Below are positions 3,692 through 17,996 of a DNA stretch of 60,370 nt, one piece after another (within the stretch, counting starts at the first letter, position 1; each line of letters opens with the position of its first letter). A model generated the notes under the pieces. The model saw only the letters and a list, made by a program, of their open reading frames with translations, searched no databases and had not been told where the DNA came from. Source of the stretch: Methanomassiliicoccaceae archaeon (lineage in GTDB: Archaea > Thermoplasmatota > Thermoplasmata > Methanomassiliicoccales > UBA472); the NCBI GenBank assembly GCA_003135935.1, contig PNBI01000101.1, positions 1 to 60,370 of the forward strand, in the 5' to 3' direction. A program made the translations under genes and the position numbers.

Positions 3692-6600
3692 GTGGGCATG
3701 GGCAGGATGAAAAAACAATACATTAGACATTTAACATGTTTCGGTATACTGTCCATGCTCCTGATCGGAGCGCTCCTTATCGTTGCCACGGACGCATTAG
3801 CTGCAGATCAGCAGGATGGGGATTATCTCTATTCAATTGATGCCGGTAATGCCAATATCACGGGATATACTGGCGCTGGCGGACCGATCGTGATCCCCTC
3901 AATATTGGGTGGCGTGTATGTAACAGCTGCCATCGGAGACCACGCGTTCTTCCAGATCGCCTCGCTGACTTCGGTGATCATACCTAACAACGTCACATAT
4001 ATCGGGGAGGGGGCTTTCGACCAATGCGTCAATCTGACCTCCGTGACCTTAGGTGATGGCATAACAATCATCGAAGATCATGCGTTCGCCAACTGCAGCT
4101 CACTGACATCGATAGAATTCTTAGGTCTCACTTCTCCAGTCATTGGAGGGGTCAATTGGACGATGGGTGCGCCCGGCACGATCCTAGGCCACGCATACGC
4201 CGATTCTAATTTCCCCGCCCCAGGGGAGGCATTCAATGGGCTGATCATGGGTGATTTCATACCGACAGCCCCTGGCGTCCCGACGGGGCTCATCGCCACT
4301 CCCAGCAACGCCCAAGTGGTTCTGACCTGGACAGCCCCTGCCGATGATGGCGGAAGCGCCATAACTGGATACAATGTCTACCGTTCCGACACCGAGACTG
4401 GAACATACTTGCTGATCGATTCGCCAACCGGACCTGCCTACACTGATTCCGGAGTGACTAACGGTCAGACCTATTGGTACGAGGTCAGCGCTGTCAACGC
4501 CATCGGAGCGGGTGCGAGGACCGCACCATCATCGTCCGTCCCTTTCACCGTTCCTGATGCCCCCACCGGGCTTATCACCACGGCTGGCAATGGCAACGTC
4601 AGTCTGAGTTGGACCGCTCCTGCCTTCGATGGCGGGCGGGGGATAGATTACTACGTCATCTACCAGGATAGCGTCCCCTTAACAGGTCATCCGACCGGCC
4701 TTTCGACCGTGATCACCGGCCTGACCAACGGGCAGCCTTACTTCTACCGGGTAAGCGCCGTGAACGCAGCGGGAGAGGGCCTGTTGTCGGCTGAGGCTTC
4801 GGCCACACCGGCCACCGTGCCGACAGCCCCTATCATCAGTTCTGCAACCGCTGGCAATTCCAATGTGACCTTAGTCTGGTCCGGACCATCAACTAACGGT
4901 GGCGCCCCCATCACCAACTATAAGGTTTACCGTAGCATCACCTTAGGCGGAGAAACGTTCCTCAACACGCTCGGGAACGTACTCACTTACACCGACACCA
5001 TGCTAACCAATGGCCAAACCTATTACTACAAGGTCACTGCGGTCAATTCTGTTGGGGAGGGGCCGCAGTCAAATGAAGCGTTTGCTTCCCCCGCAACCGT
5101 TCCGACCGCTCCTCGTGGCCTACGAGCTGTGGTCGGGGACTCGATGGTTCACCTGAATTGGACCGTGCCTTCGTACACTGGTCCTGGAACGATCACCTAT
5201 CATCTGTTCCGCGACAGCATCCCGATATGGAACGGATCGGGACTGAATCACGAGGATTCAGCCGTTACGAATGGCATTGCCTATTCTTATGAAGTCTCGG
5301 CGAACAATAGCATCGGTTGGGGACAGAACAGTACCATTGTCCAGGCCACTCCGTTGTCAGATGAGCAGAGACCAACCGCCCCAAAGAACCTCACGGCAAC
5401 AGCTGGATTGGGGAATGTGACCCTGACCTGGGACGCTCCAGCGCATAGCAACGCGTCCGCCATTTCTGGATACATGATTTCTTATGGCTTCTCAATGGAC
5501 TCGCTCACTAATCAAATCACTTGGAATCAATTGGTTTACGTTCTTGACGGCTTGACCAAGGGAACGACTTATTACTTCAAAGTGGCCGCCCAGAACAGCG
5601 CAGGCTGGGGTGTGAACTCGAGCGCCAAATCTGCCACGCCGTTCGGCGTTCCTTCCGCACCTCTTGGCTTGGGGGCGATCGCTGGCAACGGCTACGTCCT
5701 CCTGAACTGGACCGCGCCAAGCTATATTGGGCCAAGTCCGTTGACATACCGCCTGTTCCGCGACGGCTTCCCGATTTGGAACGGCACCCTTGTCGCATAT
5801 TTGGATATGCCGTTGGCCAAGAACGTATCGTTCTCATACCAGCTGGCGGCCGCGAACTCGATCGGCTGGGGACCCAATTGCACGGCAGTCGCCGCTACTC
5901 CGTTCGGTGCACCAGATGCCCCGTGGGGATTGAGCGCGACACCGAGCGATGCGAGCATATCGCTGAGCTGGAATGCAGTGAACTATTCCGGCCCCGGGGC
6001 ATTGATCTATCATCTGTTCCGAGATGGCGCATTGGTCTGGAGTGGGGCTGGGACCAATCATAGCGATAACGGCCTCATCAATGGCCAGAAGTATATTTAC
6101 AGTGTGACCGCTTCCAACTCACTGGGTTGGGGCGAAAATTCATCCATCGTGTCATCAGCCCCGCAAGGACGGCCGACCGCTCCGACGGGATTGCAGGTCG
6201 TTGCAGGAAGCAACTACGTCCAGCTCAATTGGTCCGCTCCCACATATGCCGGACCGGGGACGATCACATACCACCTGTTCCGCAATAGCACATCGATTTA
6301 CAACGGAACTGAAGCGGGATATAACGATACATCAGTGGTGAACTTCGTCCACTATTCCTATCAAGTGGCGGCCGAGAACTCGATCGGCTGGGGTCCGAAC
6401 AGCTCCGCCATCCAGGCAATGCCGCTGCCAAGCGGAATGAAGCCGACCGCCCCAAGGGGTCTTGTGGTGGTGCCTGGCAATAGGAACGCTACCTTGACTT
6501 GGAGCACGCCGCTTTACAGCAACGCATCTGCCGTATCTGGGTACATGATCTCCTATGGCACGGCTCCGGATTCGATGCCAAGTCATATTACCTTGAACCA

Positions 6601-7372
6601 GCTGGTCTACATCGTGCATGGCTTGGATAAGGCCGTGACGTATTACTTCTCAGTGAAGGCGCAGAATAGGGCAGGCTGGGGCGATAGCTCAGACATCGGA
6701 TCTACCACGCCGTTCGGCGTTCCCGACCAACCGACGAACCTGTCGGCGTTAGCAGGTAATGCGAGCGTTGACCTGAGTTGGAACGCACCATCGTACTCTG
6801 GCCCCGGGGCATTGACCTATCATCTGTTCCGCGACGGTATCCTTGTCTGGTCGGGGAGCGAGCTGGCATACAATGATACGGGGCTGGCAAACGGGCAAGA
6901 GTATTCGTACAAAGCCTCGACCAGCAACGATGTTGGGAGGGGACCGAATTCGACCGAGGTTCGGGCAACTCCCTTTGCGCCGGTGGCGCCCGGACCGCCG
7001 GAAAACTTCAATGTGACAGTAGGTAATGGGTTCGTTGATCTTGCTTGGGACCGCCCAACGCTTAGCGGCACCTCGCGGGTCACCGGCTATAATGTCTACA
7101 AAGGCGAGGACGCCTCTCACATGACGTTCTTGGCGACGGTGACATCCGCGACTTCTTACAAAGACTCCGCAGTATTGAACGGGCATCAATATTGGTATCA
7201 GGTATGCGCAGTAAGCAGCGTTGGAGAAGGCCCACTGACCGGGGTCCTAAGCGCCCAGCCGCATGCACCAGATGTCCCAAATGTTATAGATTGGTATACC
7301 TTGACCCTATCGGCAGTTGCCGGCGTCATAGTAATAGGGATGGCGATATCCTATCTCAGATCGCGCAAATGA
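3692..7372 (+). CDS. cell-surface protein: signal peptide, BspA-type leucine-rich repeats, 11 fibronectin type III domains, C-terminal TM anchor
   Basis: 1226-aa ORF. MKKQYIRHLTCFGILSMLLIGALLIVATDALA is a signal-like N-terminus, and the start could be 3692, 3698 or 3707. IPS..VT.IGDHAF..ASLTSVIIPNNVTYIGEGAFDQCVNLTSVTL..ITIIEDHAFANCSSLTSIEF is an LRR_5/BspA pattern. It is followed by repeated P.AP.GL....G...V.L.W..P...G...I..Y.......Y.Y.V.A.N..G.G units. The C-terminal WYTLTLSAVAGVIVIGMAISYLRSRK is a TM helix with a basic tail. Confidence 0.9.
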   Translation: MGMGRMKKQYIRHLTCFGILSMLLIGALLIVATDALAADQQDGDYLYSIDAGNANITGYTGAGGPIVIPSILGGVYVTAAIGDHAFFQIASLTSVIIPNNVTYIGEGAFDQCVNLTSVTLGDGITIIEDHAFANCSSLTSIEFLGLTSPVIGGVNWTMGAPGTILGHAYADSNFPAPGEAFNGLIMGDFIPTAPGVPTGLIATPSNAQVVLTWTAPADDGGSAITGYNVYRSDTETGTYLLIDSPTGPAYTDSGVTNGQTYWYEVSAVNAIGAGARTAPSSSVPFTVPDAPTGLITTAGNGNVSLSWTAPAFDGGRGIDYYVIYQDSVPLTGHPTGLSTVITGLTNGQPYFYRVSAVNAAGEGLLSAEASATPATVPTAPIISSATAGNSNVTLVWSGPSTNGGAPITNYKVYRSITLGGETFLNTLGNVLTYTDTMLTNGQTYYYKVTAVNSVGEGPQSNEAFASPATVPTAPRGLRAVVGDSMVHLNWTVPSYTGPGTITYHLFRDSIPIWNGSGLNHEDSAVTNGIAYSYEVSANNSIGWGQNSTIVQATPLSDEQRPTAPKNLTATAGLGNVTLTWDAPAHSNASAISGYMISYGFSMDSLTNQITWNQLVYVLDGLTKGTTYYFKVAAQNSAGWGVNSSAKSATPFGVPSAPLGLGAIAGNGYVLLNWTAPSYIGPSPLTYRLFRDGFPIWNGTLVAYLDMPLAKNVSFSYQLAAANSIGWGPNCTAVAATPFGAPDAPWGLSATPSDASISLSWNAVNYSGPGALIYHLFRDGALVWSGAGTNHSDNGLINGQKYIYSVTASNSLGWGENSSIVSSAPQGRPTAPTGLQVVAGSNYVQLNWSAPTYAGPGTITYHLFRNSTSIYNGTEAGYNDTSVVNFVHYSYQVAAENSIGWGPNSSAIQAMPLPSGMKPTAPRGLVVVPGNRNATLTWSTPLYSNASAVSGYMISYGTAPDSMPSHITLNQLVYIVHGLDKAVTYYFSVKAQNRAGWGDSSDIGSTTPFGVPDQPTNLSALAGNASVDLSWNAPSYSGPGALTYHLFRDGILVWSGSELAYNDTGLANGQEYSYKASTSNDVGRGPNSTEVRATPFAPVAPGPPENFNVTVGNGFVDLAWDRPTLSGTSRVTGYNVYKGEDASHMTFLATVTSATSYKDSAVLNGHQYWYQVCAVSSVGEGPLTGVLSAQPHAPDVPNVIDWYTLTLSAVAGVIVIGMAISYLRSRK
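4262..7276 (+). repeat. intragenic tandem array of 11 FN3-encoding units (~270-285 nt each)
   Basis: The array was counted manually from the translation. Two sub-types alternate: an SGYMISYG type and a Y(H/R)LFR(D/N) type. The blocks at about 5369-5908 and 6440-6982 are a duplicated pair, with stretches of near-identical DNA (for example ggccccggggcattga.ctatcatctgttccg). Confidence 0.8.
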
Positions 7373-7458: not shown

Positions 7459-8031
7459 CTAAAGGTCGAATTCGATGGATCCGCCGAGGATTCTTCGGTT
7501 GACATGTTCCTCCCATGGAGTGATCACATCACGACCGCCTTCTGGCCTTCTCCCCAGTTCAAACAAAGCGGTCTCAAGGTCCGACAGCGATTGGAAGAGG
7601 TGGATCCTTCTCTTCACATCCTGATAGCGGCCCAGTATGACATCCTGAATTTTCCGGCGGACGTCCTTCGCCTCGAAGACGAATATGCGATCGTCAAGTT
7701 CTCCTCGACCAGCACCGCAGATCAAATAATCATAGTCCAATGACGGGAAGCGCCAATCCAAAGCCATCCAACCATAGGACAGAACGGACGTCGGACGATA
7801 GTCGTACTTCAGAGAAGAATATCTGATGCGGATTACCTTCTTTGCCCAGTCCACTCCGTTCCGGGTTCCCGAGATTATCCGATAGGTCGGTGCATGACCA
7901 GGCAATTTCTTATATTTCATTCCAAGCTCGTCCAGATTATCCAATATCACTGCCTGGCACTTACTTGTCAGCTCCCATTTTGAAGTTTCTTTCCCCATCC
8001 AAATACCGAGACACCTAGGGAGAGTGGTCAT
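7459..8031 (-). CDS. hypothetical protein, putative PD-(D/E)xK nuclease-fold partner of the CHAT-like gene
   Basis: 190-aa ORF 26 nt downstream of 8058..8591 on the same strand, with GGAG 11 nt before the ATG. It has E20 in a predicted first helix, then SLDYDYLICG (D101) and IFVFEAKDV (E120-x-K122) on predicted beta strands. Confidence 0.45.
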   Translation of the reverse strand: MTTLPRCLGIWMGKETSKWELTSKCQAVILDNLDELGMKYKKLPGHAPTYRIISGTRNGVDWAKKVIRIRYSSLKYDYRPTSVLSYGWMALDWRFPSLDYDYLICGAGRGELDDRIFVFEAKDVRRKIQDVILGRYQDVKRRIHLFQSLSDLETALFELGRRPEGGRDVITPWEEHVNRRILGGSIEFDL

Positions 8032-8057
8032 TTAACATTATGCTCCGGAGACCATGC

Positions 8058-8591
8058 TCAAGTCCAAAATTGAAAGCCGCCTTTTGCCTTGCCTTTCAGG
8101 ATCGTGTTCGTCCTGTCCAACGCTCCTTTCGGTGTGTAATTTTTGTGCAGGACGAGATAGTAGAAATTGATGAACCAAACGGCTGAATCGATGAATTCGA
8201 CATCATGCACCGGGGCGATGACTCGTGACGCACCAGTAGTCTCCATGAACTCGCTGACGAAGTTCGTGCGGCTCATGCCGCAAGCCGACAAAGTCACCGT
8301 CTGCCGAGAGAAGCAACCCTCGGGAAATTCCTCAGGGCGAATGCTCCCCTGAGGCAAGTTGATCGATTCGCTATCATCTCCGCCATGAGCCGAGATATGC
8401 ACGAAATCGAACTTCTGGAGGTCACGCTTGCCCCCGAGGTAGTTCGACATCTGCGATTTCGATCGAATCGCATGGGTATGAATAGCTTCTGGCTCAGTCA
8501 TCCTCAGGAAGCTCGATAGCACCAAGCTCTCATTGAACTTCTCCGACCGGGGGATGCACTCGATTATCAACAGTCTTTTGTTTCTAGCCAC
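8058..8591 (-). CDS. minimal CHAT / caspase-like cysteine peptidase domain protein
   Basis: 177-aa ORF with a GTG start preceded by GTGAT plus a 5-nt spacer. Motifs in order are KRLLIIEC, FDFVHISAHGG (His69), TVTLSACGMS (Cys104) and GASRVIAPVHDVEFIDSAVWFINFYYLVL....GAL, which matches the CHAT His/Cys dyad and C-terminal signature. Confidence 0.6.
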   Translation of the reverse strand: MARNKRLLIIECIPRSEKFNESLVLSSFLRMTEPEAIHTHAIRSKSQMSNYLGGKRDLQKFDFVHISAHGGDDSESINLPQGSIRPEEFPEGCFSRQTVTLSACGMSRTNFVSEFMETTGASRVIAPVHDVEFIDSAVWFINFYYLVLHKNYTPKGALDRTNTILKGKAKGGFQFWT

Positions 8592-8770
8592 GTCCCATCA
8601 CTTCAACTATTCGAATCATTGGTAATTCGTATCTGGAGTTTGAACTAAGGAATCGATGCTATATCGCCTTTTCTTGAGACCGATAGCTTAGTTGCAAGGC
8701 GATTCCCGCGAGCATCTGATCTAAGGACGGGTTCCTTGGGGCTCCGATGGGTGCAGGGATTCGGATTCGC

Positions 8771-9442
8771 CTATAGCTTGCTGCCACACTCCCCGCAGAA
8801 TCTTGTGCCCGGAGTGTTCTTCGCGCCGCAGTTCTTGCATTCCAGCATCCCCAGTGGTGCGCCGCAGTTGTTGCAGAATTTGCCCTGCCCCGCCGGCTTG
8901 CCGCACTTGGGGCAGATCGTCTGTCTCGAATCGATCTCGCCGGTGAATACCTGGGTCTGCTGGGCCTTCTCCTGGATATCCTGCTTCATCTTCTCGGCCC
9001 GGGCGGCCGAGACCTCCACTGCCTCACGTGGCGCGTCATCAGTGCAGAGCTGCGCCTCCTCATTCCAATCATTGTCGCAGACGTACTTGTGGCAACGCGG
9101 GCAGCGCTTGAAATGGCCTTTGGCTTCATTGCTGGCCTGCTCGAAAACCACCTCATGCTCCTTATGCCACTCTGGAGACATGCCCGAATACTTGCTTGAC
9201 AAGATGTCCGTTCCATATTGGGAGGCTTGTCCGATGTTGTATTTGCCGGTGAGGGACCCGACCGCTCCAGCTGCCTTCCCGAGTCCTGATAGCAGCCCCT
9301 TCTTCTTGTAGGTCTTTGACTCCACGAAGCTGGTCTTGAAACCCTCCCTGCATATGTCGCAGAAAAAGGTGAATTGGAATCCAGCCTCAGTGCTATTGTC
9401 CTCCATGTTCGATGTGAACGATATCAGCTTCCCATTGCTCAT
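8771..9442 (-). CDS. zinc-ribbon domain protein (double zinc ribbon at C-terminus)
   Basis: The track ORF is 8771..9595, but ATG at 9442 (MSNGKLISF) overlaps the upstream stop as ATGA, so I take it as the likely start. Cys pairs are CDIC..., CPRCHKYVC, CPKCGKPAGQGKFCNNCG and CKNCGAKNTPGTRFCGECG. Confidence 0.65.
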   Translation of the reverse strand: MSNGKLISFTSNMEDNSTEAGFQFTFFCDICREGFKTSFVESKTYKKKGLLSGLGKAAGAVGSLTGKYNIGQASQYGTDILSSKYSGMSPEWHKEHEVVFEQASNEAKGHFKRCPRCHKYVCDNDWNEEAQLCTDDAPREAVEVSAARAEKMKQDIQEKAQQTQVFTGEIDSRQTICPKCGKPAGQGKFCNNCGAPLGMLECKNCGAKNTPGTRFCGECGSKL

Positions 9443-9774
9443 TTGCTCCCTCCATATAGCGGCTTTCCGCATTTGATGCAATTCTGACCCATCGGTGCCT
9501 GTGGGGTCTTGCATTTCGGGCACGTTACCTGCAATCTCGCTCCGCAATGCTCGCAATAGTCGCCAAGGAAAGTGCTTTGGCTGCAGGAAGGGCAACTAAC
9601 CATCAAAGGCAATCCGCAGCTCATGCAGGCCTTCTGTCCAATTTGGATTGGAGCACGACATTTGGGGCAGCGAAAACTATCCGTGGGGTTCACCTTGCCG
9701 CACCAAGGGCAAACCCTTGCATCGGGGTCCACCAATTGATCGCAGTATTTGCACGGCTTCTGATAGCCAACCAT
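9439..9774 (-). CDS. small protein made of four consecutive zinc ribbons
   Basis: 111 aa containing CKYC-x11-CPWCG, CPKC-x10-CMSCG, CPSC-x9-CEHCG and CPKC-x10-CIKCG. GGAG lies 9 nt upstream of the ATG, and an AT-rich box lies near 9845-9853. Confidence 0.7.
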   Translation of the reverse strand: MVGYQKPCKYCDQLVDPDARVCPWCGKVNPTDSFRCPKCRAPIQIGQKACMSCGLPLMVSCPSCSQSTFLGDYCEHCGARLQVTCPKCKTPQAPMGQNCIKCGKPLYGGSK

Positions 9775-9930
9775 GATTTGATTCTCCGGTATGGACCGTC
9801 ACCCAACGATCCACTTTCCATTGCCGACAATAACTGTGCGGCCAATTATAATAAGTTTCCATAATTTACCATTAACAGATAATCTTGGTGATGGTCATCG
9901 ATCATCGAGCAGGCTGATCGCTTGTCCTCC

Positions 9931-11262
9931 TCATTCGGATTTATTCCATCTCTGGGCGTCGCTATCTTGAGACACATTGAAATCCAGAAGAGCATCGACA
10001 TCGAGCTTCCACTGCTCAATGGAGGAGTGGACCACTCTTCCGATGAACCTCTCTCTGAGGAGTCTCAGCTCGGGAATTCGCATTATGGAATATCGATAGC
10101 GGGTGTATTCCGGGGAATACAAACTCTCGTTTGGAAGGTAGATCGGCTCTCGCCTGAAATTTATGGCCAAAAGGCCTTTGGCCGTTTCCATCAGAGCAGT
10201 TTCTGCCATAGGATCCAGTATGGACGGGTCCACCATCTGCGAATAGTCCTTCCTACCGATCATGCGAAAGAAATATGTCGCCCTGCCCTCTTCCTCGCCA
10301 GAGGTGGCCTCGAAAGCGATGGCATTGCCGCTTCTAGAAGCCCCTTTGGGATAGATGGGAGCAAGGAACCAGATATAATCCTTTTTCGTCTCGCCAGCTA
10401 ACGTCCTCTTCATTCCGATCCTGACCCCAGCCACTTTCGACTTCGAGGCCAAGAAAGCATACTCCTCCCCGATGCCAAGCCCTGATATCTTCATTTCCAA
10501 TCTTGACCAGAGGCCAGGGCAGGCATTCTCGAGATCACTTCTCTTCGCCGCTTTTCCATCTTTCATGAACTGAGAGGCCTTAAGAATTGCATTTGGGTCT
10601 GATTCTGGATAAACATCCTTGAGCATATCCTGCACTCTAACTGACAATTCCGTGATGGAGTCGACTATCGCTTTTTGGAAGGGTTCGAGGTCTCTGCCCA
10701 AGCGGGTGAACTCGATCTTGCCCCCAGACTCCAATAGGGCGACGACTTTGAGCGCGTCCGCCTTGCAGGTCAATAATTCGCTGTAGGGGACCCTAACGAG
10801 GTCGCTCCGCTCAGGCATGATCACCATTGCGGTTTCATATAGCCTGACCTCGCTTTTTCCTCCAACTTGTCGTTGTTCTCTTGCATCGATGAACGCGAAA
10901 TCTGCCTTGATGCCTTGTTTCCTCAGCTTCTCTTCCATTAGCAAGTCCTTGAGGGACAGCTCATTTCTTGCCTGGATAAGATTTCTTAAGAAATCCTCAT
11001 ACTTATAGCCCATGTTAGACAAAAGCAAATTATCGCCATTGGCCAGAACAATCTTGATGCGATATTCGGACTCCGCAATGTTGCCAACTTCCCTCAGTGA
11101 GAAGGACCTCGGTTCCCCATCCTTTGGGGCGATAATCATCGTCTCGGCTTCTATCATCCCGTTTCCGTCCCCTGCCACCATCACCTCGCCACCTGGGTTT
11201 GTGATGGAGAACTTCAACGTCGCCTGCATGATGAAATAACGGTCTTGCTCTTTTATTATCAT
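9931..11262 (-). CDS. hypothetical protein with a weak internal duplication in the N-terminal half
   Basis: 443-aa ORF; an alternative start is MQATLKF at 11229. Segments AETMIIAPKDGEPRSFSLREV...YRIKIVLANGDNLLLSNMGYKYEDF and ETAMVIMPERSDLVRVPYSEL...LKVVALLESGGKIEFTRLGRDLEPF align by eye. No family recognised. Confidence 0.6.
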   Translation of the reverse strand: MIIKEQDRYFIMQATLKFSITNPGGEVMVAGDGNGMIEAETMIIAPKDGEPRSFSLREVGNIAESEYRIKIVLANGDNLLLSNMGYKYEDFLRNLIQARNELSLKDLLMEEKLRKQGIKADFAFIDAREQRQVGGKSEVRLYETAMVIMPERSDLVRVPYSELLTCKADALKVVALLESGGKIEFTRLGRDLEPFQKAIVDSITELSVRVQDMLKDVYPESDPNAILKASQFMKDGKAAKRSDLENACPGLWSRLEMKISGLGIGEEYAFLASKSKVAGVRIGMKRTLAGETKKDYIWFLAPIYPKGASRSGNAIAFEATSGEEEGRATYFFRMIGRKDYSQMVDPSILDPMAETALMETAKGLLAINFRREPIYLPNESLYSPEYTRYRYSIMRIPELRLLRERFIGRVVHSSIEQWKLDVDALLDFNVSQDSDAQRWNKSE

Positions 11263-11930: not shown

Positions 11931-12086
11931 CCACCAGCCCCCACAACGTTCATTTTCCCTGGGAATTTCGGGTTTGTCGGTATAAACTATCTAATTTGAG
12001 AATCAATTTTGAGTTTCACTTTCTTCGATCTCTATTCCAGAAAAACTTCATCCACGATCCAAGATTGAAGCTCGATCTCCATCCAT

Positions 12087-13382
12087 TCAGGTCATTCGAT
12101 CCTTTGTAATCGTCTTCACGACCCGCATCGCCAGAGCGCTGGCGGTCAGCATGGTCGGCAATCCTTGCGATTGGGGGAGCAGCGAAAGGTCGGCAACGTA
12201 CAAGTTCTCCGGCAGATCGCCAGGATGCATGGAATCGACGTCCTCCCTCCGGAGCGGCACCGTGCCCCCGAGATGCCCGCCGTTGAGCATGCCAGGAACG
12301 AACGGCCCTTCCACTCCCGCGTCGAGCATCACCCTCTTGGCGAGCTCCGTTGCCGCGGCAAGCTTGTCATGGTCCGCAGACGTCAGCTCCTTGCGCACCG
12401 TTCCGTCCGCCTCCACCACGCCATTTGCCTCCTCTCCCAGTTTGACCATCACTCCCACTCGGTCTTTCAGCCCCACGTTTCTCCAGGGCTTATGGAACCA
12501 GTGCGACAGGATGTCCAGATAGGGCGAGAGGATGAAGCGGTCGTGCTTTGTGTACCAGACCATCGGAGGCTCGGAGAGCATCTCGGCGTCCTGCTTGCTA
12601 CCGCCGAGCGTCAGCACGATGTCCGCCCAAAGTTTGTCCTGGACTGGAAGCGAGGATGCGCGCAGTATCTGTGCCGTCCCGATGCCGCCGGCAGCCAGCA
12701 CCACTAGATCCGATTTGATCGTCTCATTTCCCCGCTTGGTGTGTACCAAGACTCCTGATGCAAGGCCTCGCTCGACGATCACTCGCTCCACCGGCGTCTC
12801 GAGGCGCACTTCCGCTCCTTCGAGCTTCGCTTGATCTAGCCACTGGCGGGCGTCCCACTTGGCCCCGCTGCCGCAGCCGATCTCGCACAATCCGCAGGCG
12901 ACACATCGAACGGCCTTCATCGCCTTTGGCGTTGGAGCTGGGTTGTATCCCAAGCGCTCCGCTGCCTGGAACATCGCCTCGGTCGTCGGCCTCCAGCGCT
13001 CCCTGGGGAACGTGACCGGGTGCAGCTCCGCCTCAAGCTCCTCGAACTCCTTGGTGAGGTCTAGCCCGATCTCGTCCAGGCCGCCTGTCGCCCGCACCAG
13101 ATTCCCGCAGGCGATGGTGGTCGTGCCGCCAGCAGTGATGCCTCGAACCAGCACAAGCTCGTCGCTGCTCCTCGCGGTCCACATCGCAGGGAACAGTCGG
13201 TGGATGGTGCGCTCCGTCCCCATGATCCCTGCCCGGCGAAACGGCTCCGTCATGGTCACTCTCCGGGACATCGGTCTGAACTCCGATCCCGCCTCGAGGA
13301 CTACGACGTCCATTCCTGCCTTCCTAAGTTCCCTGGCCGCCAGGCTTCCCCCTGCGCCCGATCCCACGACGATCGCCCTCAT
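12087..13382 (-). CDS. FAD-dependent GMC-family oxidoreductase
   Basis: 431 aa with MRAIVVGSGAGGSLAARELRKAGMDVVVLEAG (a dinucleotide-binding GxGxxG motif) and a GMC-like C-terminal region. The start overlaps the upstream stop by 4 nt. Confidence 0.8.
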   Translation of the reverse strand: MRAIVVGSGAGGSLAARELRKAGMDVVVLEAGSEFRPMSRRVTMTEPFRRAGIMGTERTIHRLFPAMWTARSSDELVLVRGITAGGTTTIACGNLVRATGGLDEIGLDLTKEFEELEAELHPVTFPRERWRPTTEAMFQAAERLGYNPAPTPKAMKAVRCVACGLCEIGCGSGAKWDARQWLDQAKLEGAEVRLETPVERVIVERGLASGVLVHTKRGNETIKSDLVVLAAGGIGTAQILRASSLPVQDKLWADIVLTLGGSKQDAEMLSEPPMVWYTKHDRFILSPYLDILSHWFHKPWRNVGLKDRVGVMVKLGEEANGVVEADGTVRKELTSADHDKLAAATELAKRVMLDAGVEGPFVPGMLNGGHLGGTVPLRREDVDSMHPGDLPENLYVADLSLLPQSQGLPTMLTASALAMRVVKTITKDRMT

Positions 13383-13984
13383 CTGCCTGCCTCCTTTTCG
13401 AACTTGAACTCAGCCACGCATTCCGGCTTGCCAGATGTTAGATGCTGTGTGAACTTGAGCTCCGCTCTTTCGCTAAGGCCGTGCACTACGCCCTCATCGG
13501 TCGCGCATAGCACCTCGCAGGTGCTCGAATCGTACAGCCTTGCGAGCGCGCATCGGTGCACGCGCATCTCGCCGCGCCTGTCCTCGTAGCTCATCGTGAA
13601 TTCGATGCCCAGCACTCGATAGAGCACCTTCGCTGCCTTTCGCAAGTCGCCAGGCTCATCCCTGACGCTCAGCTTCTCTCTTGCTTCCCTTCCCAGCTCC
13701 GTTCCAGCTTGGAATAAGGCAAGTCTAGCTACCTCCACCGCCCTCTCCCTTCCCAACGCTTCGACCAGGACTGCCACGCGCTCCTTATGCCCTCGCGCCA
13801 TCCGATCGCGCAGCTCTTCCAGCCTACTATCATCCTCGGCAAGTGTTCGGGGCAGGTAGCCAGAGACGCTCGCGCCAATCGCCTCGTCGAGTGCGGCGTT
13901 GGTCGCCTGCTCAACGTGCAGCAGCTCCTTCCTAATGGTGCGTTTGGGAAGGTAGGCGCTCGCGATCGCCAACCGGAGGCTCAT
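13379..13984 (-). CDS. L-2-amino-thiazoline-4-carboxylic acid hydrolase-like (ATC_hydrolase family) protein
   Basis: 201 aa. The C-terminal pattern HRCALARLY...CEVLCATDEGVV.GL....L.FTQ.LTSG...C.F.F resembles the ATC hydrolase family. It has 4-nt overlaps with both neighbours. Confidence 0.5.
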   Translation of the reverse strand: MSLRLAIASAYLPKRTIRKELLHVEQATNAALDEAIGASVSGYLPRTLAEDDSRLEELRDRMARGHKERVAVLVEALGRERAVEVARLALFQAGTELGREAREKLSVRDEPGDLRKAAKVLYRVLGIEFTMSYEDRRGEMRVHRCALARLYDSSTCEVLCATDEGVVHGLSERAELKFTQHLTSGKPECVAEFKFEKEAGR

Positions 13985-16749
13985 TTGTCCTCCTGCCGGC
14001 CGATGTGCAGCGCGTCATTGTGCGAATCAGCTCCGGAATAAAGCGCAGCGATAAGGTCCGCGAAACTGGCCTCGACCTTCGGGCGTCTGAGCTTCAGGTT
14101 AGCGGTGAGCTCACCAGACTGCACGGACAGCCTGCCTTTCACCACCGCCCAACGGCGCGGCCTCTCCGGCTGCGAGAGCCTTGCGTTCACTTCGCGCACG
14201 GTAGCATCGATCTTAGCTGCAATATCGTCGCTCCAATCCGAGCCCTCAGGCCAGAGCAGCGCGATGCAGTAGGGCTTCCCTTCCCCCACCATCAGCGCCT
14301 CGGCCAGCAAGATCGAGTCGCGTAGCATCGATTCCACCCGCATCGGGCTGACGAACTTGCCGTACGATGTCTTGATCAGCTCCTTCTTCCGTCCTTCGAG
14401 GAACAGGTAGCCCCCCTCGACCTTGCCCAAATCCCCGGTCAGCAGCCAGCCATCGCGGAATGGCTGCTGCCCTTGGTAATCGTGATAGCCAGATGTGACC
14501 TGAGGCCCACGCACCAGCACCTCTCCGTCCTCCGCGATCGCAACATCCGTCGAAGGCAGTGGTTCGCCCACGCTGCCGATGCGGTTGCGCCGCTTGCGGT
14601 TGAGCGTGACCAATGGTGCCTCGGTCAACCCGTAAGCGTTGTGGACGACGATCCCCAGCCTATCAAGGTCAGAAAGGATATCGTTGCCCATCGGGCCCGA
14701 GCCGACGATCAGGTGCTGGCATTCGTCCAGGCCGGCACGCTTCAAGGCAGCGTGGCCAACGATGGAGCGGTGCAGCTTGGCGAGCGTGCCTGAGCGATTC
14801 CGCATGGCCTTCTCGCCCATCTTCGTCTCCTTGATAGTATCCCATAGCTTCTCATAGAAGCGGGGAACGGAGAAGAACACGGTCGGCCTGACCAATGGTA
14901 GGCAGTCGCGCAGCGACTTGAACTCCTCCAGGAAGTAGATGTCCACCGAGGTTGGGGCATAGTACGGTCCATACGTTGCGAGGATGCCTTCGACCACATG
15001 GTTCATCGGCAGATAGGACAGGTAACGGACTGGACGGTTCCGTGCTTCCCATGGCGGCAGCGATGCCATCGATTCTGCCATGTAAGCCAGGTGCTCGTGC
15101 GTGAACCGGACGCCTTTTGCCTTTCCCGTCGTGCTTGAGGTGTATCGTATCGTCGCTAGGTCCTCTGGAGCAACGTTTGCGAGCGGAATCTCTCGCTCGG
15201 TCCCTAGTGCCAGGAACTCCTGCCAATCGAGGACATCGGCCGGCCTCTCCTCCGATGTACGGCAGAATGACACCGCCTTGGCCGAGCGTTCGATCTCGTC
15301 CGCTCGCTTGAGCAGCTCGTTCGTTCCAACGAATAGCACCTTCGCATCAGATGCCTGCACCAACTCAGCGATGTCGGCCGGCGGCGAGGTATAGTAGAGC
15401 GGGACGCTGACCGCGCCAACCAGGCCGATTGCCGTTTCGATGGTCAGGTAGCGGCTGCTGTTCCATCCGACCACCGCAACTCGGTCGCCTTTTCGCACTC
15501 CCAGCTCGCCCAGAGCGGACGAGGCTCGAAGGATGTCACGGCGAAGGGAGGCAGCATCCACATCGATCACTTTGCCTTCCACGATATCGTGGCAGGCGAT
15601 CCGACGGTTCTCGTGGCCCAGTCGGAAGAGCACCTGCTCGTGCACCGTCCGCCCGGTGCGATGCAGGAAGCCGGTGTATGCGGCATACTCCAGCATATGC
15701 GGCAGGATCTCCTTCCATTGTAAGTCAGGAGTACCGATCAACCTCTCGGCGTTGGCGCGCGAGAACTCCCGCCTTTCGGTGAAATAGGGTGCTAGCTGAG
15801 CAAGGTTCGAAGCCTCCCCCTTGGCGCCCACCTTGAGCAATGCTTTAACCGCGCCCTGAGGCAAGGGCAGGAACAAAGGCCTTGCCAGCTCGACCTGAAG
15901 GTTCCCGCTCGCCCATTTCATTGCCTCCTCAAACAGCTCGCCCACTTCTGGGCAACCTTCGATCGGAGCGGTGAGGTGGAACGTCTTCCCCTCAGCCTTC
16001 GGATCGAGCATCAGGCGGACCAGGGCGTCTGCGACGAGATTCACTGGCATCAGATTGACCTTGGTGTGCGACGAGATCGGGAAGAAGCGGATGTGGCCAG
16101 TGAGATACAGCCGCAATGGATAGTAGATGACATTGAACGTCCTCACCCAGCCAGACGAGGAATCCCCCACTACCATCCCAGGGCGAAAGATGCTGACCGG
16201 TAGCTTGCTCGCATGCTCGCGCACCGCCCTCTCGCCCAGGTTCTTGCTGCGCTCGTAGTTATTGTCAAGTCCTCCAGACTCTCCGAGCGAGTCTTCGTGC
16301 ACTAACCCTTCCTTATTGCTAGCCACATAGGCGGTGCTGACATGAGCGAAACGCTGCAGCCCATGATCCGCGTGGGCCCTCTCCGCGAAACGCAGAACGT
16401 TCAGCGTACCCTCGACGTTGGTACGGTTCAGCTCCTCCAGCGAAGCGTTCAGGCGCAGATCCGCTGCCGAATGAATGACATGCGTGATGCCGCTGACCAG
16501 GGAATTGTAGGTCGCCTCATCCAGCCCCAGATTGTTCTCCTTGACGTCCGCCGCGATGACCTGGACCCGTGTGCCGATGAGCTTTCTCAATTCGGGGAAA
16601 TCCCACCATGCCCTCCGGAGGCGCAGCTCCGCTTCCTCGTTAAATCGAGCGCGGACCAGCGCAACAACGTTGCATTCCTCGTCCATGAGGCGATGGGCGA
16701 CCTCAGTGCCGATGAAGCCGGTCGCACCGGTGATCAGCACAAGGTTCAT
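13981..16749 (-). CDS. fusion protein: N-terminal thioester/fatty-acyl reductase-type SDR domain + C-terminal AMP-forming long-chain acyl-CoA synthetase domain
   Basis: 922 aa. The N-terminal part has LITGATGFIGTEV and YERSK (NAD_binding_4 type). The C-terminal part has IRYTSSTTGKAKGV, NAYGLTEAP and TGDLG...GRKKELIK AMP-binding motifs. I saw no carrier-protein motif. Confidence 0.85.
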   Translation of the reverse strand: MNLVLITGATGFIGTEVAHRLMDEECNVVALVRARFNEEAELRLRRAWWDFPELRKLIGTRVQVIAADVKENNLGLDEATYNSLVSGITHVIHSAADLRLNASLEELNRTNVEGTLNVLRFAERAHADHGLQRFAHVSTAYVASNKEGLVHEDSLGESGGLDNNYERSKNLGERAVREHASKLPVSIFRPGMVVGDSSSGWVRTFNVIYYPLRLYLTGHIRFFPISSHTKVNLMPVNLVADALVRLMLDPKAEGKTFHLTAPIEGCPEVGELFEEAMKWASGNLQVELARPLFLPLPQGAVKALLKVGAKGEASNLAQLAPYFTERREFSRANAERLIGTPDLQWKEILPHMLEYAAYTGFLHRTGRTVHEQVLFRLGHENRRIACHDIVEGKVIDVDAASLRRDILRASSALGELGVRKGDRVAVVGWNSSRYLTIETAIGLVGAVSVPLYYTSPPADIAELVQASDAKVLFVGTNELLKRADEIERSAKAVSFCRTSEERPADVLDWQEFLALGTEREIPLANVAPEDLATIRYTSSTTGKAKGVRFTHEHLAYMAESMASLPPWEARNRPVRYLSYLPMNHVVEGILATYGPYYAPTSVDIYFLEEFKSLRDCLPLVRPTVFFSVPRFYEKLWDTIKETKMGEKAMRNRSGTLAKLHRSIVGHAALKRAGLDECQHLIVGSGPMGNDILSDLDRLGIVVHNAYGLTEAPLVTLNRKRRNRIGSVGEPLPSTDVAIAEDGEVLVRGPQVTSGYHDYQGQQPFRDGWLLTGDLGKVEGGYLFLEGRKKELIKTSYGKFVSPMRVESMLRDSILLAEALMVGEGKPYCIALLWPEGSDWSDDIAAKIDATVREVNARLSQPERPRRWAVVKGRLSVQSGELTANLKLRRPKVEASFADLIAALYSGADSHNDALHIGRQEDK

Positions 16750-17996
16750 TCCACCACCGGTAATCCGTTATCAAGCGCGAACTTTCGGAGCAGCTCTACG
16801 TTTCGCTTCGCCTTCTCCACATGCTGCGCGTTGATTAGCAGAATGCGCTCGCGGATCGTTTCACGTCCGCTCAATAGGCGGTCGTCGATATTCCTCAGCC
16901 TCTCCCAGGCATCCTCCGCCCTGCGGGGGATGAAGAACTCGTCCCTCATGCCGCTCTCCTGGTAGAGGTCACGCAGGCGAAGGTCGTGGCCTAAAGCAAC
17001 CTGCGGAACCCCCCCGGCCATGGAAAGAACTGCGGCGTGGTAGCGCGAAGTGACCAGCAGGTCAAGCGAGCGCAGGATGCGTGTCATAGTGGCGGCGTCA
17101 TACTCGTTCGAGGAGAACACTTTTGCCTTATCCCTCTCCTTCATGCGCTCGCGCACCATCCTCGCCAGATGTTCGTCCACCGCCTCCATTGAGATGAGCG
17201 CGATGTGCTTGTCATACTTCTCGACCAGGCGGTCCGCCTCCGCCGCTAAGTTGCTCGCCAACTCCTCACTCGCTTTCCGACGCTTCTTGGACCGTGAGAA
17301 ATAGTAAGGCCAGCGATAGCAGTCCCGCCTTCGGCCGAAGGGTCTTATCACCACCGGCCAGATATTGAAGTCCACCACCGCCATTCCGGCGACGTTCCTG
17401 GCCTCGGGCCAAAGGCGCTTCAGCGTTCCCTCTTCCGATCCGGCGTTGAACGTGAAAGCGGTGTCGTCAGTCACCTCGATCGGGGCAGTCACGCCCCACT
17501 TGCGCAGTCGGTCGGCAGAGAGCTTGGTGCGGGTGATCAACAGATCGATCTTACTAGCTTCGCGACGAACCCTAGACTTCCATCTATCGCTCAGTTGGCC
17601 CGAGTCTACCGCGTATGCGATCATCGGCACACCATAGCCTTCGGAGTACTTTGAAGCGGAGAGGAAGGACAGGAGCAAAGCTCCCGCCCAGGTGTCCATA
17701 AAGCAGCTGCCCTCCACCAGCATGGTCAAATCGCTCCGCTTCACCAGGCGGCGTAATGCGAAGAAGAAGATGGATGGGACCGGAGCGATCCGCAGATGCT
17801 CTTCCTCCTCAAGGTAGCGGCGCAAGTTCACTTCATTGAGCGTTGGGACGGTGATAATGGCCTCAGAACCGAAGACCTTGCGAACGTCCTCGATGATCGA
17901 GATTAGACGAGTCTCAGAACCGGTGTTGTTTGCACCGTTATAACCGAACAGTAGGATCCGCGGACATTTTCTGATCTTAGGGTTTGATGAAGGCAT
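16746..17996 (-). CDS. polysaccharide pyruvyl transferase family protein
   Basis: The track ORF extends to 18047. ATG at 17996 (MPSSNPKIRK) lies about 31 nt downstream of an ATTATAT box, so I take it as the start. Motifs ILLFGYNGANNTGSE and TSRYHAAVLSMAGGVPQVALGHD resemble PS_pyruv_trans. Confidence 0.65.
   Translation of the reverse strand: MPSSNPKIRKCPRILLFGYNGANNTGSETRLISIIEDVRKVFGSEAIITVPTLNEVNLRRYLEEEEHLRIAPVPSIFFFALRRLVKRSDLTMLVEGSCFMDTWAGALLLSFLSASKYSEGYGVPMIAYAVDSGQLSDRWKSRVRREASKIDLLITRTKLSADRLRKWGVTAPIEVTDDTAFTFNAGSEEGTLKRLWPEARNVAGMAVVDFNIWPVVIRPFGRRRDCYRWPYYFSRSKKRRKASEELASNLAAEADRLVEKYDKHIALISMEAVDEHLARMVRERMKERDKAKVFSSNEYDAATMTRILRSLDLLVTSRYHAAVLSMAGGVPQVALGHDLRLRDLYQESGMRDEFFIPRRAEDAWERLRNIDDRLLSGRETIRERILLINAQHVEKAKRNVELLRKFALDNGLPVVE

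Follow-up and report, generated by a model that had tools for sequence, protein, structure and literature searches.

SAVED-CHAT, an accessory protease of type III-B CRISPR (PDB 8tl0), is a CHAT protein whose catalytic dyad, H375/C422, has been verified experimentally and in which filament formation induces rigidification (bioRxiv 10.1101/2023.06.23.546230). In Canu (CanABC), a named defence system, a latent nuclease is activated by a caspase-family protease whose gene lies beside its own; the caspase is MALT1-like and carries an Ig-like domain, the nuclease is a gated metallo-beta-lactamase (MBL), and the conserved loci of the system lie in defence islands (PMC12799240). Here we analyzed a stretch of 60,370 nucleotides (nt) from a Methanomassiliicoccaceae archaeon (contig PNBI01000101.1, below called the window), in which a short open reading frame (ORF), ORF A, is followed on the same strand by a second one, ORF B. 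A preliminary description had taken ORF A for a bare CHAT/caspase core and ORF B for a PD-(D/E)xK nuclease, and had joined the two into a candidate conflict module. We find the first of these assignments well founded. In our view ORF A is probably an autonomous single-domain CHAT-type cysteine peptidase that resides in a gene unit of its own, with ORF B as a chance neighbor. The two ORFs are as follows, with lengths in amino acids (aa).

Positions 8058..8591, minus strand: ORF A, 177 aa, predicted single-domain CHAT-type (clan CD, caspase-hemoglobinase fold) cysteine peptidase core, assigned by translation, AlphaFold2 (AF2) modeling, Foldseek, family profile and conservation.
Positions 7459..8031, minus strand: ORF B, a narrow, lineage-restricted protein of 190 aa, more likely 179 aa starting from Met12 at position 7998.

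Translation of the window bore out both ORFs and the motifs previously quoted for them. ORF A is an open frame with a GTG start and contains KRLLIIEC, FDFVHISAHGG with the catalytic candidate His69 (codon 8387-8385), TVTLSACGMS with the catalytic candidate Cys104 (codon 8282-8280), and the C-terminal stretch GASRVIAPVHDVEFIDSAVWFINFYYLVL, which matches the earlier quotation. The order of these motifs is more than chance, since it is accompanied by the structural match and the family conservation described below.

The AF2 model of ORF A, computed from a 16-sequence alignment, was confident (predicted local distance difference test [pLDDT], 86.5; predicted template modeling score, 0.86). Its elements follow the order b1-a1-b2-a2-b3-(His)-loop-b4-(Cys)-a3-b5-a4-a5-b6, which is the minimal six-stranded caspase-hemoglobinase topology. 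H69, within HxxxHG, stands directly after strand 3 (E63-67), and C104, within SAC, directly after strand 4 (E98-101). When the model was compared with the PDB by Foldseek, the best match was SAVED-CHAT (8tl0; E = 1e-7), followed by the CHAT anti-sigma factor DdvA, Csx29/TPR-CHAT and many caspase-3/6/7/8 entries; the top matches were all CHAT or caspase proteins, with E values from 1e-7 to 1e-4 and a Foldseek probability of 1.0. Among the viral structures of BFVD, the best named matches were clostripain- and caspase-domain proteins. The top viral match was an uncharacterised 320-aa myovirus protein, A0A8S5MXG5 (E = 3e-10; template modeling [TM] score of 0.78 on the query), and some phages thus also carry compact CHAT-like proteins.

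At the sequence level, the family profile of ORF A (A3) had a single significant match among PDB sequences, the CHAT domain of 8tl0 (E = 2e-7). The alignment placed the family HG on FIGHG and the family SAC on LNAC, at a chain distance of 47 residues, which is the spacing of the verified dyad (bioRxiv 10.1101/2023.06.23.546230). The Pfam CHAT model (PF12770) was matched by 22 of 102 family members (E ≤ 0.01; best E = 9e-8), and Peptidase_C13 (legumain) by one member (E = 2e-6). Searched alone, ORF A gave no significant match in Pfam, PADLOC, NCBIfam, PHROGs or PDB sequences; it was unmatched by PF12770 even at E ≤ 10 and unmatched by Peptidase_C14, and ten relatives scanned singly against PF12770, close ones included, remained below threshold at most. 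The confident fold, the conserved dyad and the family matches to 8tl0 and to Pfam CHAT together place ORF A in the CHAT superfamily. As judged from model and sequence, it is a genuine single-domain member with its catalytic signature intact, so that the earlier assignment to the caspase/CHAT fold has held up in both structure and profile searches.

Conservation of the dyad, which the preliminary description had also put forward, was evident at every depth of alignment. Among the 16 sequences used for modeling, C104 was invariant and H69 was kept in all members except one, which is garbled at this position and apparently frameshifted. Among 102 sequences with a mean column identity of only 17%, C104 was the sole invariant column, while H65, H69, G70, E11, E21, P127 and Y144 were each conserved in at least 90%. 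A word-seeded search with ORF A yielded 31 homolog clusters, whose full-length members have 176 to 208 aa and whose sole organism name is Thermoplasmata archaeon, and an exhaustive profile search raised the family to at least 334 clusters (50% identity; E ≤ 1e-3). We found no fused TPR, SAVED, STAND or effector-associated sensor or adaptor domain in the 177 aa of ORF A, which form one domain; the listed family members have at most 273 aa, mostly ∼170 to 270 aa, with some shorter fragments.

Close relatives of ORF A occur in Thermoplasmata/Methanomassiliicoccaceae metagenome-assembled genomes (MAGs) and in one Methanoculleus isolate. Scanning genome collections with the 16-sequence alignment revealed a patchy distribution in reference genomes, with 11 loci in 9 genomes. 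One relative of 198 aa carries the JGI label "CHAT domain-containing protein", whereas no other member checked bears a source name besides "hypothetical protein"; look-ups of the distant clusters gave hardly any names, and a literature search on stand-alone CHAT proteins returned nothing specific. The family lacks a Pfam model of its own; with ORF A, a known protease superfamily gains a further, new member. In the genome of Methanoculleus frigidifontis (NZ_VCYH01000001; locus L025, 3763-6549), two paralogs of this mini-CHAT type, with 182 and 179 aa and ∼39 to 40% identity to ORF A, flank a 339-aa ORF that has a signal-peptide-like N terminus and, by sequence reading alone, resembles a DNase I/EEP-type nuclease.

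We assessed the pairing of the two genes at 93 loci encoding ORF A relatives, gathered from reference genomes and metagenomes. By tblastn, ORF B was detected at two of them, the window and a 1.1-kb contig, L060. Among the nonredundant loci with at least 700 nt of downstream sequence (n = 60), 58 had no ORF B beside ORF A, and neither had 12 of the 14 close relatives (≥75% identity). At five ORF B loci, in turn, ORF A was absent upstream: its place was taken by an FN3/unknown gene (L006), a baeRF_family10 gene (L009), a zinc-ribbon gene (L011), an HD_assoc_2 gene (L027/28) and an unknown gene (L029). Both genes are present in MAG GCA_003153895.1, on separate contigs (ORF A, with 92% identity, on PMBU01000060 and ORF B on PMBU01000045). 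The preliminary description had itself named missing synteny in other genomes as grounds against a module, and this is what the 58 ORF A loci and the five ORF B loci display: beyond the window and L060 the two genes are not syntenic. On this comparison of gene orders, the adjacency appears as a local accident and the conflict module as not real.

How the adjacency arose could be read from contig L011, for which the following features of the window are relevant.

Positions 8045..8770, minus strand: 726-nt segment with ORF A and its upstream region, replaced by 75 nt in the collinear contig L011; a single-gene indel according to blastn and alignment.
Positions 8655..8675, minus strand: conserved upstream block AAGAAAAGGCGATATAGCATC, ∼70 nt before the ORF A start codon, recognized by alignment of loci.
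Positions 8771..9595, minus strand: upstream neighbor, gene for a double-zinc-ribbon protein (Pfam DZR and Zn_ribbon), with the true start probably at ∼9442.

L011 is collinear with the window over the gene for a 443-aa protein, the zinc-ribbon genes and ORF B, with 79 to 84% nucleotide identity. By blastn, L011 1-2155 corresponds to window 10922-8771 (84%) and L011 2231-2813 to window 8044-7459 (79%); ORF A is absent from L011, and ORF B directly follows the zinc-ribbon gene. ORF B thus lies downstream of ORF A because the zinc-ribbon gene and ORF B have the ORF A cassette between them. When the window was aligned with other close ORF A loci, homology began at AAGAAAAGGCGATATAGCATC, a block common to the window, L015, L001/L030, L016, L032 and L034, beyond which the upstream sequences are unrelated. 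Between the window and L015, homology stopped at the ORF A stop codon (blastn). These limits define the unit as a promoter-like element plus the coding sequence. The block itself looks like an archaeal B recognition element (BRE)/TATA promoter element that travels with ORF A, and it may serve as its promoter.

We also considered a mobile-element origin of the cassette and rejected it, as no relatives of ORF A or ORF B were found among IMG/VR viral contigs or PLSDB plasmids and no convincing repeats flank the cassette. One MAG, MFD01299.bin.2.50, harbors three copies (L016, L017 and L021) of a multi-kb segment with ORF A; one contig holds two of these, oppositely oriented. The copies are accompanied by an MFS transporter, a CDF transporter, a metallophosphoesterase and a PQQ propeller, and two of the ORF A copies look truncated or frameshifted. 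These copies are likely due to strain mixture, duplication or indels from long reads; their position among transporter and phosphoesterase genes makes strain mixture or duplication likelier than an element.

The second gene of the proposed pair proved to be narrowly distributed. ORF B has 11 homolog clusters in all, eight close ones (≥73% identity) and three distant ones (58, 49 and 40%). As described earlier, the frame at 8031 begins 26 nt past the ORF A stop codon, with a GGAG 11 nt before its ATG. This sequence is present, but the start is doubtful, because in seven of eight close homologs translation begins at the equivalent of Met12 (179 aa; 7459..7998) and residues 1 to 11 are conserved solely in the nearest relatives. 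The residues that had suggested a PD-(D/E)xK nuclease, namely E20, D101 (DYLICG) and E120-A-K122 (IFVFEAK), are present in ORF B, but within the family only D101 is invariant. E20 is unconserved, E120 gives way to S in P0188 and to V in P0189, K122 is replaced by R in four of eight close homologs and by N in P0189, and in the homologs with 40 to 58% identity D101 alone is kept. No match to ORF B was obtained in Pfam (E ≤ 0.05), NCBIfam, PADLOC or PHROGs, and the profile search of the PDB and the scans of individual family members against Pfam were likewise negative. The AF2 model (9-sequence alignment) had a pLDDT of 41.5 and was unusable; at this low confidence, Foldseek returned no match at E ≤ 0.001, the best nuclease match being I-Ssp6803I (E = 0.46). 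A nuclease function of ORF B is thus unsupported by sequence or model.

Gene types that are frequent in conflict neighborhoods include baeRF_family10/eRF1-like, DUF4238 and HD/HD_assoc_2 genes. One ORF B relative lies downstream of a baeRF_family10/eRF1-like gene (L009, 544-1380), and another is found downstream of a DUF4238 gene and a gene for a 451-aa protein with weak HD and HD_assoc_2 matches (L027, 325-3452; L027/L028). We saw no partner common to the different ORF B loci.

The wider surroundings of the two genes were unremarkable. In the window, the neighbors encode an FN3 surface protein, zinc-ribbon proteins and oxidoreductases. PADLOC, run on ORF A, ORF B and ten neighboring ORFs, matched neither ORF A nor ORF B and produced one match only, of a C-3',4' desaturase-type model on the FAD/GMC oxidoreductase-like ORF at 12087-13382; no defence gene was therefore found near the pair. 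Rfam detected nothing in the window. At other ORF A loci, the Pfam-annotated neighbors are transporters, an oxidoreductase and a metallophosphoesterase. All-versus-all clustering of the flanking ORFs revealed no partner beyond clade-level synteny, and the recurrent neighbors differ between clades, being low-molecular-weight phosphatase-like, flavin-binding-like and pirin-like by sequence reading alone. The G+C content of the pair is slightly below that of the FN3 gene (0.507 versus 0.559), as had been noted by eye. It lies, however, at the 34th percentile of equal-sized windows (mean, 0.528; standard deviation, 0.039), so that there is no compositional anomaly at the pair; a compositional island was rejected on this percentile.

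On the plus strand, the FN3 gene (3692-7372) encodes a surface protein of 1,226 aa with apparently many FN3-like repeats in tandem, a signal-like segment at the N terminus and a hydrophobic anchor at the C terminus. ORFs rich in FN3 recur near ORF A or ORF B in L006, L013, L016, L017 and L019. On the other side, two double-zinc-ribbon ORFs overlap on the minus strand (9439-9774 and 8771-9595). The call of 274 aa for the latter is probably over-extended, the L011 ortholog having 223 aa. The 443-aa ORF (9931-11262, minus strand) has no Pfam match and belongs to the block 8771-11262 that is collinear with L011. Farther away, positions 12000-17500 form a GC-rich block (∼0.60, compared with a window mean of 0.527), which may represent an acquired acyl-activating/reducing operon and contains the following genes.

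Positions 12087-13382: GMC/FAD oxidoreductase-like protein.
Positions 13379-13984: ATC_hydrolase-like protein.
Positions 13981-16749: 922-aa fusion of NAD_binding_4 and AMP-binding.

If ORF A is autonomous, as we think probable, it would act as a cytoplasmic cysteine peptidase using the His69/Cys104 dyad. Since it has neither a fused nor a reliably adjacent sensor, TPR, SAVED or effector-associated domain, its activity would most likely be controlled by self-association, as in caspase dimers or the filaments of SAVED-CHAT, or else in trans, through the availability of a substrate or inhibitor encoded elsewhere. It would move or be lost as a unit of promoter and coding sequence of ∼620 to 730 nt and would sit among ordinary chromosomal genes, and ORF B would be an unrelated small protein of narrow distribution. 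Several observations weigh against this interpretation. The sequence of ORF A itself falls below the thresholds of Pfam, NCBIfam and the PDB sequence search, so that its CHAT assignment passes through a structure model and transitive profile evidence, and its proteolytic activity, like its mode of regulation and the function of its promoter, is what we infer. A few sediment and peat metagenomes supply most of the sampled loci, and the ordinary chromosomal context is thus drawn from limited diversity. Moreover, L060, a diverged contig, retains the order of the two genes with an ORF B protein that is 91% identical, the gap between them is short, and the intergenic sequence as read has no run of five or more T residues; given these three features, the genes may be cotranscribed and could be functionally linked in this lineage. 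In L060 (260-350), ORF A has a 1-nt deletion near codon 150, which is either a frameshift or a sequencing error.

A two-gene conflict module, in which the mini-CHAT protein would cleave ORF B as a latent PD-(D/E)xK nuclease and thereby activate or inactivate it in a Canu-like manner, would explain why the genes share a strand at a distance of 26 to 59 nt and why L060 retains their order. D101 and E120-x-K122 fall on predicted strand positions fitting such a core, in the low-confidence model; some ORF B relatives lie near conflict-type genes (baeRF_family10; HD_assoc_2 plus DUF4238), and caspase-activated nucleases have precedent (PMC12799240). We nevertheless regard this module as very unlikely, given the many ORF A and ORF B loci that lack the other gene, the unlinked genes of GCA_003153895.1, the presence of ORF B without ORF A in the same context in L011, the missing conservation of E20, E120 and K122, the absence of any nuclease profile or fold match for ORF B, and the lack of PADLOC matches to either gene and of a defence island. 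It is equally hard to credit that the cassette, once inserted upstream of ORF B and kept in the window and L060, has given rise to a nascent, lineage-specific protease-effector pair with Canu-like logic and a structurally novel, non-MBL effector, the family then being a plug-in protease with varying local partners.

The remaining alternatives concern ORF A itself. It might not be an autonomous protease, acting instead as a regulatory or adaptor subunit, as a decoy or inhibitor of a clan CD protease, or as a legumain/GPI8-type transpeptidase or ligase, its partners being encoded elsewhere in the genome. Such a role would suit a 177-aa protein devoid of the extra loops and domains that form substrate grooves in characterised CHAT enzymes (the aligned targets have 470 to 900 aa), as well as the single Peptidase_C13 match in the family and the failure of flanking-ORF clustering to find a linked substrate gene. 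We consider it unlikely, as a dyad and flanking glycine so strictly conserved in a very divergent family favor catalysis over a scaffold, and the model predicts the whole six-strand core at high confidence. Somewhat less plausible still is that ORF A serves as effector in a system of defence or abortive infection with an unlinked or variable sensor, the family being mobile defence cargo. Neither the PADLOC models, none of which matches ORF A, nor its neighbors (transporters, oxidoreductases, phosphatase-like and pirin-like ORFs) point in this direction, and no copies were found on phage contigs or plasmids. A cargo role would fit the occurrence of gene and promoter as a unit in differing contexts among close relatives (≥80% identity), one ORF A locus that is flanked by transposases, the patchy occurrence in reference genomes and the fact that known CHAT proteins are mostly linked to defence.

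Taken as a stand-alone peptidase, ORF A represents at least 334 clusters of proteins of roughly 180 aa that keep the full CHAT signature without a sensor or adaptor and have been overlooked by Pfam, NCBIfam and PADLOC. If active, these proteins would be among the smallest caspase-fold peptidases and a convenient minimal model for how a CHAT core is regulated without fused domains. Setting the conflict module aside removes a false lead, and the case of ORF B shows why a PD-(D/E)xK call made from motifs in an orphan protein should be checked for conservation in the family.

The preliminary description had not recognized the pairing as a named system. The concept of a caspase with a latent nuclease now has a name in Canu, but the Canu parts are absent here: ORF B bears no MBL or other nuclease signature, the adjacency of the two genes is not conserved, and there is no defence island. 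DUF6642 (PF20347; 182 positions), on which we found no literature, is matched by four distant members of the 102-sequence family set (best E = 1e-6), and one 202-aa member covers most of the model below the gathering score; ORF A and its close relatives are unmatched even at E ≤ 10. Csx29/TPR-CHAT (Craspase, type III-E) and DdvA share the fold and the dyad topology with ORF A but are multidomain proteins of 650 to 900 aa under the control of gRAMP-crRNA or a membrane anti-sigma module, of which no equivalent was found here; like SAVED-CHAT, both are coupled to sensors and belong to defence loci. Caspases-3/6/7 (C14) have in common with ORF A the caspase-hemoglobinase fold and the placement of His behind strand 3 and of Cys behind strand 4, at a sequence identity of 10 to 15%, whereas ORF A shows no p20/p10 linker. 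The active-site motif of caspases is QACxG; the motifs of ORF A (HxxxHG, SAC and the C-terminal FY..L helix) are instead of the CHAT type. SAVED-CHAT is the best structural match (TM score of 0.68 to 0.71 on the query). In contrast to ORF A, with its 177 aa, no sensor domain and no CRISPR or CBASS context, SAVED-CHAT has ∼490 aa and a cA3-sensing SAVED domain and works in filaments within a CRISPR locus; what the two share is the alignment of their HG and (S/N)AC motifs, at the spacing of H375 and C422.

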